Below are positions 23,748 through 33,910 of a stretch of DNA of 64,000 nucleotides, piece by piece. The DNA is from Candidatus Levyibacteriota bacterium (GTDB taxonomy: Bacteria > Patescibacteriota > Microgenomatia > Levybacterales > UBA12049): the NCBI GenBank assembly GCA_963722305.1, contig CAVRKE010000001.1, positions 309,549 through 373,548 on the forward strand, read 5' to 3'. The notes beneath the pieces were generated by a model. It did no database searches and had not been told where the DNA came from. It saw nothing but the letters and a program-made list of their open reading frames with translations. Made by a program: the position numbers and the translations under genes. Numbering within the stretch: position 1 is the stretch's first letter; every line of letters begins with the position of its first letter.

Positions 23748-24413
23748 ATGACACAAAGCGTTTTAATTGTCGGGGAAAAAGAAAAAGCCAGGGAGAAAGC
23801 CTTAAACATTGCCCGGGAAAATTCAATTTCCCGGTTCGACATTGAAATAATCGAAACGGAAAAAGCGGTCGGGATAGGGGACATTCGACGTTTGCAGAAA
23901 AAGATTTGGCTCAAGCCGATTAAAAGTGAAATAAAAGCGGTAATTTTGGAAGCGTTTTATGAGATGACGGTGGAAAGCCAGAATGCCTTCCTGAAAATGT
24001 TGGAAGAACCGCCTGCCAATACAATTGTGATAATTCTTGTTTCCTCTTTGGATTTTTTACTTCCGACAGTCCTCTCCAGATGCAATTTAATTAACCTTAA
24101 TCAGCTCAAGAATCTTTCAGACGAAGATATGGAAAGTAACCTGAGATTAATTCTTGACCTTAAAAACCAAGGACACGCAAACGCATTAGTGCTGACCCAA
24201 AAGAATTCAAAAGATAAAGAAACCGCCTTGCAATTTTTAGAGAATTTAATAGTGGCCGCACACCAGGCCTTAGAAAGTAATACCGCTGAATTCTCGACTG
24301 AGGATTTGCGAAAAATTCTAAAGAATTTACAGGCAACTTATACGCTGATTAAATCAACCAACGTCAATGTCCGCTTTGCCCTGGAGAATTTATTTTTGAA
24401 CTTCCTTATTTAA
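23748..24413 (+). CDS. holB: DNA polymerase III delta-prime-like subunit
   Basis: AAA+-like fold with ...AFLKMLEEPP...TIVIIL...LSRCNLINL (SRC motif) typical of HolB. Confidence 0.7.
   Translation: MTQSVLIVGEKEKAREKALNIARENSISRFDIEIIETEKAVGIGDIRRLQKKIWLKPIKSEIKAVILEAFYEMTVESQNAFLKMLEEPPANTIVIILVSSLDFLLPTVLSRCNLINLNQLKNLSDEDMESNLRLILDLKNQGHANALVLTQKNSKDKETALQFLENLIVAAHQALESNTAEFSTEDLRKILKNLQATYTLIKSTNVNVRFALENLFLNFLI
24365..24403 (+). repeat. Direct repeat, copy A (the holB 3' end); the partner is at 25886-25924
   Basis: 39 nt, 36/39 identical: CAATGTCCGCtTTGCccTGGAGAATTTATTTTTGAACTT. Confidence 0.85.
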
Positions 24414-24457
24414 AACCCATAGTTTTATTTCCCGGCTAATTTTGCTATAATCGAAAA

Positions 24458-24907
24458 ATGATTAATGGATGGATGATTGTCCCTACATCAGACGGATTTA
24501 AATTACGAACAGAAGAAGCAATCGCCGGGCGAACTAACGGTGCTATTCTTTATACTGAAACATGGGGCGAACGTGATGTTCGGACTCGATTTTCCGGAGC
24601 TTTTGATTTAGGGGAAGGAAGCAAATATTACGAATTTAGCCTTGAAATTGATCAATCAGCAAGCATAGGTTTACCCTTTTCGCAAATTCACGTAGGTTTC
24701 AATCAAGAACTTCTCGGGGCAACGGCGCTCTCAAAAAGGGCACGCAAGAAAGCAATTGAATTAGCCGCAACCCTTCCTGAGGAACTTAAAACACTAGGAT
24801 CAAGGTTAGACAAAAGAGAACTAGCGGAAGCATGGCGAAAGACACTTGAAATTTACGATGAAATACCCCATGGAGAATCTGCTTCTCCTCAAGGAAGAAT
24901 AAAATAA
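24458..24907 (+). CDS. Hypothetical protein (149 aa)
   Basis: ORF preceded by an extended -10 TGCTATAAT at 24434. Confidence 0.4.
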   Translation: MINGWMIVPTSDGFKLRTEEAIAGRTNGAILYTETWGERDVRTRFSGAFDLGEGSKYYEFSLEIDQSASIGLPFSQIHVGFNQELLGATALSKRARKKAIELAATLPEELKTLGSRLDKRELAEAWRKTLEIYDEIPHGESASPQGRIK

Positions 24908-24970
24908 GCACGATAAGTTCTAAATCTCTACAAGTAAAAGCTCACGTGTATAATCTGCTAAAATAAAAGC

Positions 24971-25873
24971 ATGAATTTATCTACAAACAGACAGGGAGAG
25001 TTATCGGTACTTTCGGAGGCTGCCCTGTGGGGACTGTTTCCGGTTGTTACCGTTTTATCGGAAGACAAGGTTGCACCGCTGGTGGCTTTGGGATTTAGTA
25101 CTCTCTTCGCCTGCATATTTTTTGCCGTAGTTTTAACCCTGAAGAAAAAATGGAAAGAGTTGCTGCAAAAATCCGCGCTTTCGGATATTTTAATTTCAAC
25201 CTTACTTCTGGGCATAATTTATTACGTTCTGACTTTTTTTGCCCTTCTGCACACCAGCCCCGGCAATGCCAGCATTATTGGGGTGGTAGAAATATTTTTC
25301 AGTTTTCTGTTCTTCCATGTATGGCGTAAAGAAGAACTGGTGAAATGGCACGTTGTCGGCGCAATCTTTATGGTAATCGGAGTCATCATTATTTTTTCCC
25401 CGAATTTTCGCCAGTTTCAAATCGGTGACTTATTAATTTTGCTGGCAACCGCAATTGCTCCTTTCGGCAATTTTTTTCAAAGAAGAGCCAGAACAAAAGT
25501 TAGCAGTGAAAGCATCTTGTTTATCAGAACTGCCATCAGCGCAGCAGTGATTTTGTTTATGGCGCTTTTACTCGGTAATTCTTTTTCGGTGCGCGGACTT
25601 TCCGACATTTGGCTGTTGCTTATTATTAACGGCGCGGTTATTTTGGGATTTTCCAAAATTCTCTGGATTGAAGGGATTCACCGCATTAGTGTTATGAAAG
25701 CTAACGCTTTGGCAACCGTCGCACCGCCCACAACTTTAATTTTTGCCTGGCTCATATTGCAAAAAGCTCCAACTATATACCAACTATTTTCCTTTGTGCC
25801 GATATTTATCGGGGTAATATTTTTAAGCATTAACAAACGGGTTTCAAAGCAGGAAGCCGAACAACACGATTAA
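24971..25873 (+). CDS. EamA/DMT-family transporter (10 TM)
   Basis: Two repeats of 5 TM helices; about 300 aa. Confidence 0.6.
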   Translation: MNLSTNRQGELSVLSEAALWGLFPVVTVLSEDKVAPLVALGFSTLFACIFFAVVLTLKKKWKELLQKSALSDILISTLLLGIIYYVLTFFALLHTSPGNASIIGVVEIFFSFLFFHVWRKEELVKWHVVGAIFMVIGVIIIFSPNFRQFQIGDLLILLATAIAPFGNFFQRRARTKVSSESILFIRTAISAAVILFMALLLGNSFSVRGLSDIWLLLIINGAVILGFSKILWIEGIHRISVMKANALATVAPPTTLIFAWLILQKAPTIYQLFSFVPIFIGVIFLSINKRVSKQEAEQHD

Positions 25874-25885
25874 ATCAAGCATTTC

Positions 25886-25924
25886 CAATGTCCGCATTGC
25901 TTTGGAGAATTTATTTTTGAACTT
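25886..25924 (+). repeat. Direct repeat, copy B (a duplicated holB 3' end)
   Basis: See copy A; it lies immediately after the EamA gene stop. Confidence 0.85.
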
Positions 25925-25955
25925 TTAGGAAAAAGGTGCTATAATCTACAATACT

Positions 25956-26225
25956 ATGAGTCGCTTAGAGAATGGGGCAACAGCGGGACATTTTTTTGAA
26001 GATGGAGAAGATAGTACCGCACTACTTGGCAGAGCAGGGCAATTGATTGAAATTGAAGAAATTCTTCAACAGGGAGGAGTTCTTCCGGCAATCGAATATC
26101 GTATCGGCACCGACGCAAATAGACTTTTAACAGCGGGCGATTTACCTCTTATCGGCGCGGCGATCGACATAATCTCTCAAACAATTGCACCATCGAGCGC
26201 TGACATTGCAGCAATTCGCTACTAA
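25956..26225 (+). CDS. Hypothetical protein (89 aa)
   Basis: ORF 13 nt downstream of GTGCTATAATCT (the same box as at 28412). Confidence 0.3.
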   Translation: MSRLENGATAGHFFEDGEDSTALLGRAGQLIEIEEILQQGGVLPAIEYRIGTDANRLLTAGDLPLIGAAIDIISQTIAPSSADIAAIRY

Positions 26226-26275
26226 TCGGATAGTGTCAGAGAATTTGTTGCTGAACAAGAAACTTTTCGGGGAAC

Positions 26276-32574: not shown

Positions 32575-32594
32575 GAGAAAATTTGGGGCAGAGC

Positions 32595-32999
32595 CTATTG
32601 TCCTGTTACCAATATTGCTAATTCTCTTCTACTTCTCGTATGCGTATCAAAATTTGCATCAACCCCTTTAATTCCTCTTGTATCCAAACCAATTACCCTT
32701 GAATTGGGAAAAGATTCTCTGACTCTCTCAATCAATGTTTCTTCCGGAACAGAAAATGGGACTTGTCGAAGTGGACCGCCTAATATTACAACATCGACCA
32801 CTTCGCCTTGTTTGCTTAATTGCTGTACATGTCTTTCCGCAGCGTATGAATTAGTAGCTGCTCCCACAACCCGATGTCCTTCTCTATTTAATGCATCAGT
32901 AATACCTTTGAGGTCAGCAAAATCAGGTATTATTACCAATACTCCTGCTTCTTTCGGCATAATGGAGGGAATTATACTACAAGCTAGAAAATAAAACAA
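32595..32999 (-). CDS. Hypothetical protein, possibly a degenerate receiver/Rossmann-like fold (probable start at the internal MPKEAG at 32960)
   Basis: VLVIIPDF...VVDVVILGG alternates beta and alpha elements, but the Asp pocket of a true REC domain is absent. Confidence 0.3.
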   Translation of the reverse strand: MFYFLACSIIPSIMPKEAGVLVIIPDFADLKGITDALNREGHRVVGAATNSYAAERHVQQLSKQGEVVDVVILGGPLRQVPFSVPEETLIERVRESFPNSRVIGLDTRGIKGVDANFDTHTRSRRELAILVTGQ

Positions 33000-33051
33000 A
33001 ACGGAGAAAAACTTGGGACCAGGTTGACTTTCGCCTTCCTAATAATTATAC

Positions 33052-33390
33052 TTGCTAGCCATGTTTAGAGGAGAACTCGACGAGGCATACACTCGGCCCT
33101 TTCCGGGCAGTGATTTCTTTACAAGCGAACAGGCCAGACACATTAATGCAGCGCTTGATTTTGCCTGCGAATTCGACAATTTGCACGGGAAGCCATTAGA
33201 TAAAACAATAAAGATAAGCGCAGCGCAAAGGCGTTTAATTATGCGCGCCAACGCTCAGGTAGTCTTCCAAACAGCACTGGCGCTCGGAGAAACAATCAAA
33301 GGAGATGAAATTATGAGAATACTTGAAGTCGGCCACCCTAGAGAGATGCTTCCCATCGCCACGCGCAGCCACCTTTTTGAAAGATCCTAA
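33052..33390 (+). CDS. Hypothetical protein (112 aa)
   Basis: ORF preceded by TTGACT-17-TATACT. Confidence 0.35.
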   Translation: MLAMFRGELDEAYTRPFPGSDFFTSEQARHINAALDFACEFDNLHGKPLDKTIKISAAQRRLIMRANAQVVFQTALALGETIKGDEIMRILEVGHPREMLPIATRSHLFERS

Positions 33391-33467
33391 AACTAAATTT
33401 AACCGGGGCCAAGCGAAAGCGAGGTGCCCGGAGGCAAAAATTTCGGGCGGAAAACCCATAGTTGTAT

Positions 33468-33510
33468 AAGTTACGAAATGTCGAATATGTTTCGTAACTT
33501 ATACACTCTT
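33468..33510 (+). other. Perfect 15-bp inverted repeat hairpin (GTATAAGTTACGAAA-13 nt-TTTCGTAACTTATAC) directly downstream of motif copy 9
   Basis: Stem arms 33468-33482 and 33496-33510; the left arm overlaps the TATAAG -10 of the motif promoter. Confidence 0.7.
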
Positions 33511-33576
33511 ACCTTCTGAAACTATGATTGGGAATACGTAGAATCGTTTATCAACTTTTTGCTATAATTATCTTAA

Positions 33577-33864
33577 GTGAATATTGTACTTATTACTATT
33601 ATTGTTGGGGTTTTGACGACCATTTTGTCCGTCATTATTAAAATCGTTGGTTTTCCGGATCAGATGGTCAAAAATTTCAAGCGCAAATCCACCGAAGGAG
33701 TCTCCACCACTTTTTACGTGTTATCCGTTATCACTTATATTGTCTGGACAATTTACGGATTGTTGAGAAGTGATATTGTAGTAGTTATATCTCAAGCATT
33801 GGGAATTGTTACCACCGGCATAATTGTCTACCAGATTTTTATTTATAGAAGAAAGAAAAAGTAG
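33577..33864 (+). CDS. SemiSWEET / PQ-loop (MtN3-like) 3-TM sugar transporter
   Basis: 95 aa, 3 TM, with GFPDQMVKNFKRKSTEGVS matching the PQ-loop consensus (G.PQ....K.KS..G.S). Confidence 0.55.
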   Translation: MNIVLITIIVGVLTTILSVIIKIVGFPDQMVKNFKRKSTEGVSTTFYVLSVITYIVWTIYGLLRSDIVVVISQALGIVTTGIIVYQIFIYRRKKK

Positions 33865-33910
33865 ATTTCTACTAGAAATCTACCTCATTTTCTGCTAAAC
33901 TGGATACCTG

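Follow-up and report, generated by a model that had tools for sequence, protein, structure and literature searches.

Flexible genomic islands, or hypervariable regions, lie at fixed positions in streamlined genomes; the hypervariable regions of SAR11 and the additive and replacement islands of marine bacteria are examples. Another kind of variable locus, that of the sedentary chromosomal integrons, is built around attC sites, imperfect inverted repeats of 50–150 nt (R''-L''...L'-R') that fold as single-stranded hairpins. A third arises by tandem accretion at the 3' end of a target gene, as at tRNA or tmRNA att sites or, for integrative mobile elements exploiting Xer (IMEX), at dif. A cluster of attC sites lacking an integrase is called a CALIN (Cury et al. 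2016, PMC4889954). Here, we describe the interval between holB and gyrB in 64,000 nucleotides of DNA from a Candidatus Levyibacteriota bacterium (assembly GCA_963722305.1, contig CAVRKE010000001.1, positions 309,549 to 373,548; this whole stretch is called the window below). The 9.5-kb gap is tiled from 24458 to 33864 by 19 open reading frames (ORFs) of 69–300 amino acids, counted as non-overlapping and named g01 to g19, and a polar motif of ~22 nt recurs at the junctions between them. Hypervariable islands at fixed loci and integron or CALIN arrays are both already known; here, features of both are combined in a member of the Candidate Phyla Radiation (CPR), with an unstructured 22-nt site.

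Like the flexible islands, the holB–gyrB interval has conserved core genes on both sides, content that differs between related genomes in a strain- or species-specific way, many unknown families, transporters, and a native composition. Unlike in those islands, its units are single genes, a dedicated polar junction repeat is kept across species, and two small genes are resident. The likeness to integrons and CALINs lies in the compact, mostly single-ORF cassettes of mostly unknown function, in the one directly repeated site per junction, always in one orientation, in the ORF ends lying tight against that site, in the shuffled order, and in the ability of the site to supply a promoter to the adjacent gene. 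No IntI adjoins the array, which distinguishes it from an integron (a CALIN does not require one), and, unlike in either system, the ~22-nt repeat has no attC-type imperfect palindrome or fold, each cassette has its own promoter, about one-third of the cassettes are inverted, and the array, in this CPR lineage, has an essential gene on either side. Features shared with tandem accretion and IMEX are a displaced, diverged copy of the end of holB beyond an insert, the direct repetition of the core at each junction, and an Xer-like recombinase gene in the neighborhood. The units differ from accreted elements in their size (0.4–1.5 kb) and in lacking integrase and phage genes. Between the motif and the 3' end of holB (GAGAATTTATTTTTGAAC) there is a weak resemblance, with a position weight matrix (PWM) score of 9.8, which is at noise level; the resemblance is suggestive, and we make no claim of a derivation.

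A Hypervariable Interval at a Conserved Position

The interval was compared with ~15 related loci from Levybacteria and Microgenomates metagenome-assembled genomes (MAGs) and metagenome contigs; the closest gyrB relatives are from Levybacteria/Microgenomates MAGs (67–85% identity). The conserved order is a type-IV-pilus operon (including T2SSE, minus strand), holB (plus strand), the gap, gyrB (plus strand), the H+-PPase gene, and gyrA. The gap measures ~0.1 kb in L005, L008, and L015, 1.5 kb in L171, 1.9–2.1 kb in L092 and L086, 4.3 kb in L003, 6.3 kb in L002, and 8.5–8.6 kb in L163 and L004. Its content is just as different: a Mur-ligase, alpha/beta-hydrolase, DegT, and FemAB block is found in L003 and L004 (the latter with additional Crp-like and HD-domain genes), a 2-hydroxyacid dehydrogenase gene in L086, peptide deformylase and hydrolase genes in L169, DUF3800 and TnpB genes in L163, and other small ORFans together with two paralogous HExxH proteins in L002. 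None of the 19 island proteins of the window was detectable in L002–L004. The record label of L002, “Gammaproteobacteria”, is probably wrong, its gyrB being 85% identical to that of the window.

With conserved flanks and a gap of different length and content in each genome, the stretch is therefore a lineage-wide hypervariable interval. It is native and has a conserved architecture, and it is established to be neither a one-block acquisition nor a single multi-protein system. The expectation that the stretch is variable relative to relatives, with most genes outside known families, is supported. The original prediction had also held that the lack of any conserved neighborhood would mark the island as random DNA; a conserved neighborhood exists, and it consists of the locus and its architecture, not of a gene set.

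The same comparison bears on the suggestion that the genes form one undescribed system. Such a system might be, for example, an envelope, export, or host-interaction module, with the motif as the operator of a dedicated regulator. A shared and interval-specific cis motif is in keeping with it, as are the concentration of three transporters and one secreted protein in one place and the adjoining type-IV-pilus operon. Yet the gene sets are almost wholly different between species that keep the locus, the relatives' intervals hold unrelated enzymes (peptide deformylase, Mur ligase, FemAB, 2-hydroxyacid dehydrogenase), no regulator is conserved in the interval, the genes are monocistronic and lie in both orientations, and their presence and absence across genomes is already largely uncorrelated. 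We regard a single co-regulated system as improbable. Co-acquisition as one module is likewise contradicted: GC content and codon usage are host-like, phyletic patterns differ from gene to gene (g12 occupies the interval at all eight context loci examined, g14 at two), the relatives' gaps hold other genes, and the order is shuffled, g14 preceding g12 in L163 but following it in the window and in L164.

Coding Capacity, Composition, and Family Matches

About 20 small genes had been expected between holB and gyrB, and 19 were confirmed, together with both anchors. The same genes were called independently on a public Logan contig 100% identical to window positions 21674–33498. Codon usage was scored with a model that had been fitted to 40 other genes of the window, and decoy ORFs served as the comparison. 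The ORFs scored 0.04–0.32; the mean was 0.21 for the training genes and −0.14 for the decoys. Since the annotated frame ranked first in 19 of 19 cases, the ORFs look like genuine native genes by their codon usage. Spurious ORFs in mostly non-coding or decaying DNA would fit the short lengths, the scarcity of homologues, and the scores of g13 (0.04) and of g05 and g09 (both ~0.08), which fall under the 95th percentile of the decoy ORFs (0.115). The frame ranking, the tiling of the DNA with promoter-sized gaps, and the homologues of g06, g10, g12, g13, and g14 (38–76% amino-acid identity) make this explanation hardly credible.

The GC content of the island is 41.1%, versus 42.2% for the window. 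The ORFs at about 50% GC against a backbone of about 40%, which had been taken as a mark of the island, disappear on measurement: the richest island ORFs reach 0.47–0.49, while housekeeping genes such as pilB and gyrB have 0.48–0.55. The foreign composition of a horizontally acquired island was not found, and foreign origin by GC anomaly was rejected, both composition and codon usage being host-like.

Known-family matches were obtained for only three of the 19 genes, the two EamA exporters and the SemiSWEET that had been predicted, and both Pfam and NCBIfam confirm them. The other 16 proteins were recognized by neither PADLOC nor NCBIfam, and PHROGs returned three weak, unconvincing matches for the island ORFs (E 3e-4 to 3e-3). 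As anticipated, no integrase or known defense domain emerged: Pfam assigned none of the island ORFs a domain of an integrase or other recombinase, and a PADLOC search of the 19 island proteins and of g21, a gene downstream of gyrB, found no match that would make this a defense island. Rfam gave no match at E ≤ 1 over 23000–37000, so no riboswitch or known RNA was recognized in the long spacers, and no tRNA gene was found at the island borders. The description of the content as almost entirely uncharacterized holds for sequence libraries; it fails for g12, which has a confident fold assignment. A prophage or a defense island was rejected on the unconvincing PHROGs matches, the empty PADLOC and NCBIfam searches, and IMG/VR scans, in which g12, g14, and g10 had no relatives.

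The island has no mobility genes and no border tRNA; yet g01 and g02 are bracketed by a direct repeat, 57 nt long, of the end of holB, and the L163 interval carries TnpB. The displaced copy lies directly after g02 (Table 1), still reads IKSSISNVRIALENLFLNF* in frame, and is followed by the same TGCTATAATC −10 box that follows holB. The copy and its −10 box indicate that g01 and g02 were inserted at the holB 3' end, displacing the old end. The insertion is old and distinct from the units bounded by the motif. The duplicated holB 3' end, as an att-like footprint, the TnpB gene of L163, and an IS1595 transposase elsewhere in the window might also be read as traces of a mobile element (prophage, integrative conjugative element, or transposon) acquired as one block and since degraded. 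With no phage, conjugation, integrase, or defense domains in the island, no IMG/VR relatives of g12, g14, and g10, native GC content and codon usage, no border tRNA, and resident genes inherited vertically with the locus, we consider such a remnant very unlikely.

A Polar Motif at the Gene Junctions

The motif was first seen as a repeated intergenic sequence in a repeat search of the window. Its consensus is sssGAAAATTTGGkTTTGAAAc, and the variant in this genome is GAAAATTTGGGGCGGAAAAC. Seven strong copies lie between 28387 and 33454 (Table 1), all of them intergenic and on the plus strand, and none is found elsewhere in the 64 kb. The shorter string AAAATTTSGG occurs seven times on both strands of the window, with six of the occurrences on the plus strand at 28392–33437. 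Of the shared promoter architecture that had been proposed for the island, a common cis motif is borne out by these seven copies, for part of the stretch only.

The core also recurs throughout the relatives' intervals. The density of its 9-mer is 0.44/kb within intervals versus 0.06/kb in the flanks, and 24 of the 26 copies inside intervals are on the gyrB strand. When a PWM built from the relatives only was run over the window, its top three matches were the junctions at 30932, 29546, and 28390, above all 100 shuffles. A calibrated sequence model, R1, was applied to 79 sources (1.59 Mb). The 31 best matches (E ≤ 0.32) all fell within holB–gyrB intervals, at 11 loci, and all were on the gyrB strand irrespective of gene orientation; two of them, the L084 copies upstream of gyrB, were not in the training set. 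Nothing better than E 0.33 was found by R1 in ~54 unrelated genomes, and no top-31 match lay in the flanks. Viral contigs yielded 93 single matches and no arrays, which is within chance by a rough estimate, and L002 has no junction motif.

In the window's right half, as in L163, L164, L167, L169, and L084, each junction has one copy, and copies occur at tandem plus, tandem minus, convergent, and divergent junctions alike. At most junctions the stop codon of a plus-strand gene precedes the motif by 1–25 nt (some gaps are 40–110 nt), and the stop codon of a minus-strand gene follows it after 0–3 nt. A perfect TATAAT is found exactly 17 nt after TTGGkk in five copies, and at 19 and 23 nt in two more; the −10 box is absent from all seven copies that abut minus-strand genes. 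The copy at 28387–28408 (TTGGGT, 17 nt, TATAAT) doubles as a −35 element, and the spacing suggests that the motif acts as one wherever TATAAT follows at 17 nt.

L164 and L169 are homologous through a shared 129-amino-acid gene and the motif, and diverge ~12 nt after it. The motif is present on both sides of g12 in the window, L163, and L167, and window–L167 homology around g12 begins at the upstream copy. In the smallest arrays, a single copy lies ~45 nt upstream of the conserved gyrB −10 box; the minimal array of L171 reads holB, TrpR, g12, an 83-amino-acid ORF, the motif, and the gyrB promoter. The L163 interval has nine intergenic copies. Its TnpB (Cas12f1-like_TNB) gene at 8728–9807 is flanked by junction-motif copies, and its DUF3800 gene is at 6962–7840; the ~40 nt directly upstream of the motif after the TnpB gene are similar to the 3' end of the gene for peptide deformylase in L169. 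An attC-like hairpin and an intrinsic terminator were ruled out as identities of the motif: it has no stable fold, and no GC-rich stem lies upstream of the copies read in context.

Gene Turnover and the Role of the Motif

Our preferred and, we think, probable reading is that the hypervariable interval is an array of compact gene units, each with its own promoter and with one polar motif between units, and that these units are gained, lost, and reordered. The interval is kept at one fixed position in Levybacteria-like Microgenomates, between the divergent type-IV-pilus/holB block and the gyrB–H+-PPase–gyrA block. A unit would comprise a single gene, occasionally two, in either orientation; g12 and g14 would be long-term residents, and the two EamA transporters, the SemiSWEET, and small soluble proteins would make up other units. 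Insertion, excision, or exchange would proceed by recombination at the motif, catalyzed by an enzyme presumably encoded elsewhere, and the motif would also be the −35 half of a unit's promoter where a −10 box follows at the proper distance. The island would then be a diversity-generating locus, not one multi-protein machine. The TnpB gene in the L163 interval, as mobile-element activity in a relative, counts in favor of this reading.

The narrower proposition that the motif marks cassette boundaries, with units inserted, lost, and reordered by a recombinase encoded elsewhere, is plausible, though we stop short of calling it probable. A XerC/D-like tyrosine recombinase gene lies 13 kb away at 46744–47718 (minus strand; Phage_integrase, E 5.5e-44, plus an N-terminal SAM_1 domain), and its product is a candidate recombinase for the motif. 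Around it, at ~43–50 kb, both the orientation of the genes and the cumulative GC skew change over, and the region may be terminus-like. More tentative still is the view of the locus as a new chromosomal cassette platform, on which site-specific recombination at a polar core of ~22 nt, unstructured and in this unlike attC, would take up, release, and rearrange single-gene cassettes of either orientation, each with its own promoter. The recombinase would be encoded elsewhere, the Xer-like enzyme being one possibility, the core would double as a −35 element, and the locus would be a nursery for fast-evolving lineage-specific CPR proteins.

Several observations weigh against recombination at the motif. 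No recombinase gene was found in or adjoining the interval in any locus examined: the Phage_integrase domain is missing within ±8–10 kb in eight related loci, and the XerC/D-like gene is the sole tyrosine recombinase gene of the window. Neither a close-strain pair with an occupied and an empty junction nor a circular cassette junction was found, and a single clean synteny break at the motif was analyzed (L164/L169). Several copies lie at a proper −35 distance from a −10 box, and regulation alone would account for some of what is seen. Of the 31 R1 matches, 27 were training sequences, and the specificity of the motif to the interval applies to the ~10 kb of flank per relative and the 64 kb of this genome that were scanned. 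The g01–g09 half of the island has only decayed copies (PWM 8–10), individually at noise level. Folds of 100 nt of single-stranded DNA around ten junction copies gave z values of −1.9 to +1.1 and no common or stable hairpin, and the motif bears no apparent likeness to known dif sites.

The strongest competing account is that of an ordinary variable region in which a local UP/−35 or operator module, belonging to a lineage-specific promoter type, has spread by local duplications, while genes turn over by indels, homologous recombination, and rapid divergence. The five copies with TATAAT at exactly 17 nt, and the two at 19 and 23 nt, are what such a module would look like, and the copy upstream of g12 is kept in the window and in L167 together with the −10 box and the leaderless start. 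Neither a nearby recombinase nor a structured att site was seen, and homologous exchange is suggested by the mosaic divergence of the near-identical strain contig L082 (10% in the pilus genes, 0% across 27368–30082). Yet all copies point in the same direction, and at least seven of them abut the 3' ends of minus-strand genes without a −10 box; the best-conserved window copy, at 30929–30952, is one that abuts a minus-strand gene and has no promoter use. The promoters of the minus-strand genes are separate and lack the motif (a repeat shared by g11 and g17), and convergent junctions are filled although no promoter is needed there, the whole g16–g17 spacer being motif. The uniform polarity, the copies at convergent junctions, and those abutting minus-strand genes are thus not explained by a promoter or operator role alone, and we regard this account as rather unlikely, if a serious one.

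Recurring and Fast-Diverging Genes

Homologues of g14 were found in the intervals of L163 (75% identity, E 1.8e-49) and L164 (38%). L173 is the closest relative found, with 89% identity in pilB (T2SSE) and 65% in holB. In the same interval and orientation it carries a 50%-identical homologue of g06 (tblastn E 2.7e-33; phmmer E 9.6e-42). An exhaustive phmmer search of 1.84 billion cluster representatives returned only four relatives of g10; the top one, ~50% identical, is encoded downstream of holB in the L173 interval. The L163 interval also has a weaker g10 relative, with E values of 2e-5 against the window and 2e-8 against L173. A 168-amino-acid ORF at L084:669-1175 resembles g10 by eye only, with no alignment behind the resemblance. 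Thus, g06 and g10 are at ~50% identity to L173 where pilB is at 89%. Weak links connect g09 (phmmer E 7e-4) to a family of small proteins, three paralogous members of which are in the L166 interval, and g15 to an EamA fragment in the L173 interval. The remaining island genes are species-specific, while other families are common to the relatives only. By these comparisons, the island ORFans are fast-diverging genes confined to the interval, with patchy presence.

The Resident Protein g12 Has a Zincin Fold

The HExxH protein of the original prediction is real and corresponds to g12. Its family has 99 members (39–76% identity), none with a Pfam annotation except for TPR-type repeats on one 307-amino-acid member. 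A homologue lies between holB and gyrB in every context looked up (L163, L164, L166, L167, L169, L171, and L172). HExxHR, H108, and E135 are invariant in the family alignment, and an AlphaFold2 model made from a 45-sequence alignment has a predicted local distance difference test score (pLDDT) of 92.6. In the model, the HExxH helix is followed by another helix that supplies the third ligand, as is characteristic of the zincin fold. No membership in a curated peptidase family was found by sequence (no Pfam match at E < 0.1, no NCBIfam match, no PDB sequence match).

For g12 only, the relevant comparison is with the MA-clan gluzincins (the catalytic domain of M1 aminopeptidases and leukotriene A4 hydrolase, thermolysin) and with minimal zincins (minigluzincins, Wss1/SprT, YbeY). 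In contrast to these, g12 is a single domain of 172 amino acids without a sequence match to Pfam, NCBIfam, or PDB families. We conclude from the model that g12 is probably a stand-alone cytoplasmic zincin-fold zinc/metal hydrolase; it could be a non-peptidase hydrolase. The gene is leaderless, the −10 box ending 6 nt before the start codon, and this arrangement is kept in L167. Two other HExxH proteins, the paralogues of L002 at 3723–4466 and 6003–6776 (both minus strand, ~250 amino acids, E 5e-26 to each other), are unrelated to g12 in sequence.

Other Island Genes and Control Elements

The features of the interval are listed in Table 1.

Table 1. Genes, junction-motif copies, and repeat of the holB–gyrB interval, in window coordinates.
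Feature	Position	Strand	Properties and evidence
holB (DNA polymerase III delta')	23748-24413	+	Left anchor; PF13177 DNA_pol3_delta2, E 7.6e-25; synteny
g01	24458-24907	+	149-aa soluble ORFan; no Pfam/PHROGs/PADLOC/NCBIfam match; codon score 0.12, best frame
g02, EamA-family (drug/metabolite transporter, DMT)	24971-25873	+	PF00892, E 1.9e-32; 9-10 transmembrane (TM) segments
Displaced copy of holB 3' end	25868-25924	+	57 nt, 86% identical to 24347-24403; repeat search, alignment
g03	25956-26225	+	89-aa acidic ORFan; no Pfam/PHROGs match
g04	26276-26539	-	ORFan of ~87 aa; overlaps g05; no family matches
g05	26524-26805	-	ORFan of 80-93 aa; overlaps g04; no family matches; codon score ~0.08
g06	26828-27268	-	146-aa basic protein; homologue in L173 interval
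g07	27368-27577	+	69-aa ORFan; no family matches
g08	27574-27996	+	140-aa ORFan; 4-nt overlap with g07, translationally coupled; no family matches
g09	28045-28374	+	109-aa ORFan; codon score ~0.08
Motif g09/g10	28387-28408	+	R1 E 0.037; relatives-only PWM 19.7, above every shuffle
g10	28437-28997	+	186 aa; narrow fast-evolving family
Motif g10/g11	29035-29056	+	Abuts stop codon of minus-strand g11; no -10 box
g11	29058-29537	-	ORFan of 139-159 aa (start uncertain)
Motif g11/g12 (divergent)	29546-29566	+	17 nt upstream of g12 TATAAT; kept upstream of g12 in L167
g12	29588-30106	+	172-aa stand-alone zincin (HExxH) domain
g13	30380-30826	+	148-aa predicted secreted all-beta protein; hydrophobic N-terminus; lowest island codon score, 0.04
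Motif g13/g14	30929-30952	+	R1 E 0.0021; PWM 21.1; best window copy; abuts stop of minus-strand g14
g14	30952-31284	-	110-aa coiled-coil protein; Pfam and PHROGs coiled-coil matches weak only
g15, second EamA-family transporter	31420-32262	+	PF00892, E 1.5e-29
Motif g15/g16	32276-32297	+	Motif scan, R1
g16	32320-32574	+	84-aa basic, low-complexity ORF; least certain island gene
Motif g16/g17	32574-32592	+	Whole 20-nt convergent spacer is motif
g17	32595-32960	-	121-aa alpha/beta-looking ORFan; gene call
g18	33052-33390	+	ORFan of 109-112 aa
Motif g18/g19	33433-33454	+	TTCGGG, 17 nt, TATAAG, then inverted repeat 33463-33505
g19, SemiSWEET (PQ-loop) transporter	33577-33864	+	PF03083, E 5.9e-10; PF04193, E 3.1e-9; NF037968; 3 TM segments
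gyrB	33911-35932	+	Right anchor; translation; 79-85% identity to Levybacteria-type gyrB

The EamA proteins scored 112.8 and 103.4 bits against PF00892 (cut-off 28.2), and g19 scored 39.5 bits against PF03083 (cut-off 23.7). The numbers of TM windows (nine in g02, seven in g15, and three in g19) fit the topology of the EamA/DMT and SemiSWEET families. No substrate was assigned, since g02, g15, and g19 did not reach NCBIfam equivalog cut-offs; for g02, the TIGR00950 match was under the cut-off.

Upstream of g01, g03, g10, and g12 (spacers 24414–24457, 25925–25955, 28409–28436, and 29567–29587), an extended −10 box (TGnTATAAT) ends 6–13 nt before the start codon and there is no Shine-Dalgarno sequence; by this spacing, the mRNAs would be leaderless or near-leaderless. 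A −10 box of a similar kind, TGCTAAACT, is found at gyrB. By contrast, g13 has a long leader and stands out from its island neighbors by its strong Shine-Dalgarno sequence (GGAGGTG), its own sigma70-like promoter, a hairpin terminator at 30849–30892 followed by UUUU (dG −21.4 kcal/mol, z −2.5), and the lowest codon score. The secreted protein with a strong ribosome-binding site and terminator is thus as predicted; its designation as a four-cysteine protein is not, for the single homologue (51% identity) keeps the first cysteine pair alone. The structure model of g13 was poor and gave no fold match.

The sequence TTGTAGTATAAT upstream of g11 was also found upstream of g17 in the repeat search. 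The 3' part of g11 contains a 39-nt tandem repeat (90% identical) at 29075–29155, which encodes NLFRLANVPQV / NLLRLAKVPKV. For g16, the codon score was 0.155, versus 0.13 for the opposite-strand frame. The pseudo-receiver assignment of g17 was not upheld (best CheY match E 0.72, no significant Pfam or PDB support), and a degenerate Nudix identity for g06 was rejected, as Pfam and PDB gave it no significant support either. At 33463–33505, ~70 nt upstream of the SemiSWEET gene, lies a perfect 16-nt inverted repeat (TGTATAAGTTACGAAA / TTTCGTAACTTATACA, 11-nt loop). The repeat, which may serve as an operator or attenuator, overlaps the −10-like box behind the last junction motif.

Neighboring Regions

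Downstream of gyrB, a 163-amino-acid basic ORFan (g21, 36066–36557, plus strand) precedes the H+-PPase gene. In relatives, this spot holds nothing, an HhH-GPD glycosylase gene, or other genes, and the corresponding gap in L002 is 3.4 kb; it looks like a second, smaller variable spot directly downstream of gyrB. The gyrA gene is split into three consecutive ORFs, one at 39277–40359 (DNA_topoisoIV, profile positions 64–376) and two with GyrA C-terminal repeats at 40310–40921 and 40955–41488. The first of these lacks the N-terminal part, and in relatives gyrA is a single gene encoding ~820–850 amino acids. The split could reflect frameshifts or a pseudogene, assembly errors, or an insertion. An IS1595-family transposase gene (DDE_Tnp_IS1595 plus zinc ribbon) lies at 62668–63474 (minus strand), near tRNA-Leu (60661–60744).

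A second contig from the same population, L082, is at least 99% identical to the window at 17948–19325 and identical at 27368–30082, and differs by 9–10% across the pilus genes (19381–23545). The differences are mostly synonymous (138 synonymous and 33 non-synonymous in T2SSE). The pattern suggests that recombination between strains has replaced the allele of the type-IV-pilus ATPase region; since indels abound in L082, an assembly chimera is possible.

Significance

Members of the CPR have tiny genomes and many lineage-specific proteins of unknown origin and function, and the holB–gyrB interval is one comparable place in which such novelty is concentrated. The junction motif gives it a recognizable DNA signature by which further genomes could be screened. 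Should the motif prove purely regulatory, the interval is still a natural marker for strain-level variation, the reading of an undescribed multi-gene system can be set aside, and g12 is a newly delimited, widespread Microgenomates family with a confident fold. If the motif is a recombination site, the locus would represent integron-like gene capture without attC or IntI, the first described for the CPR.

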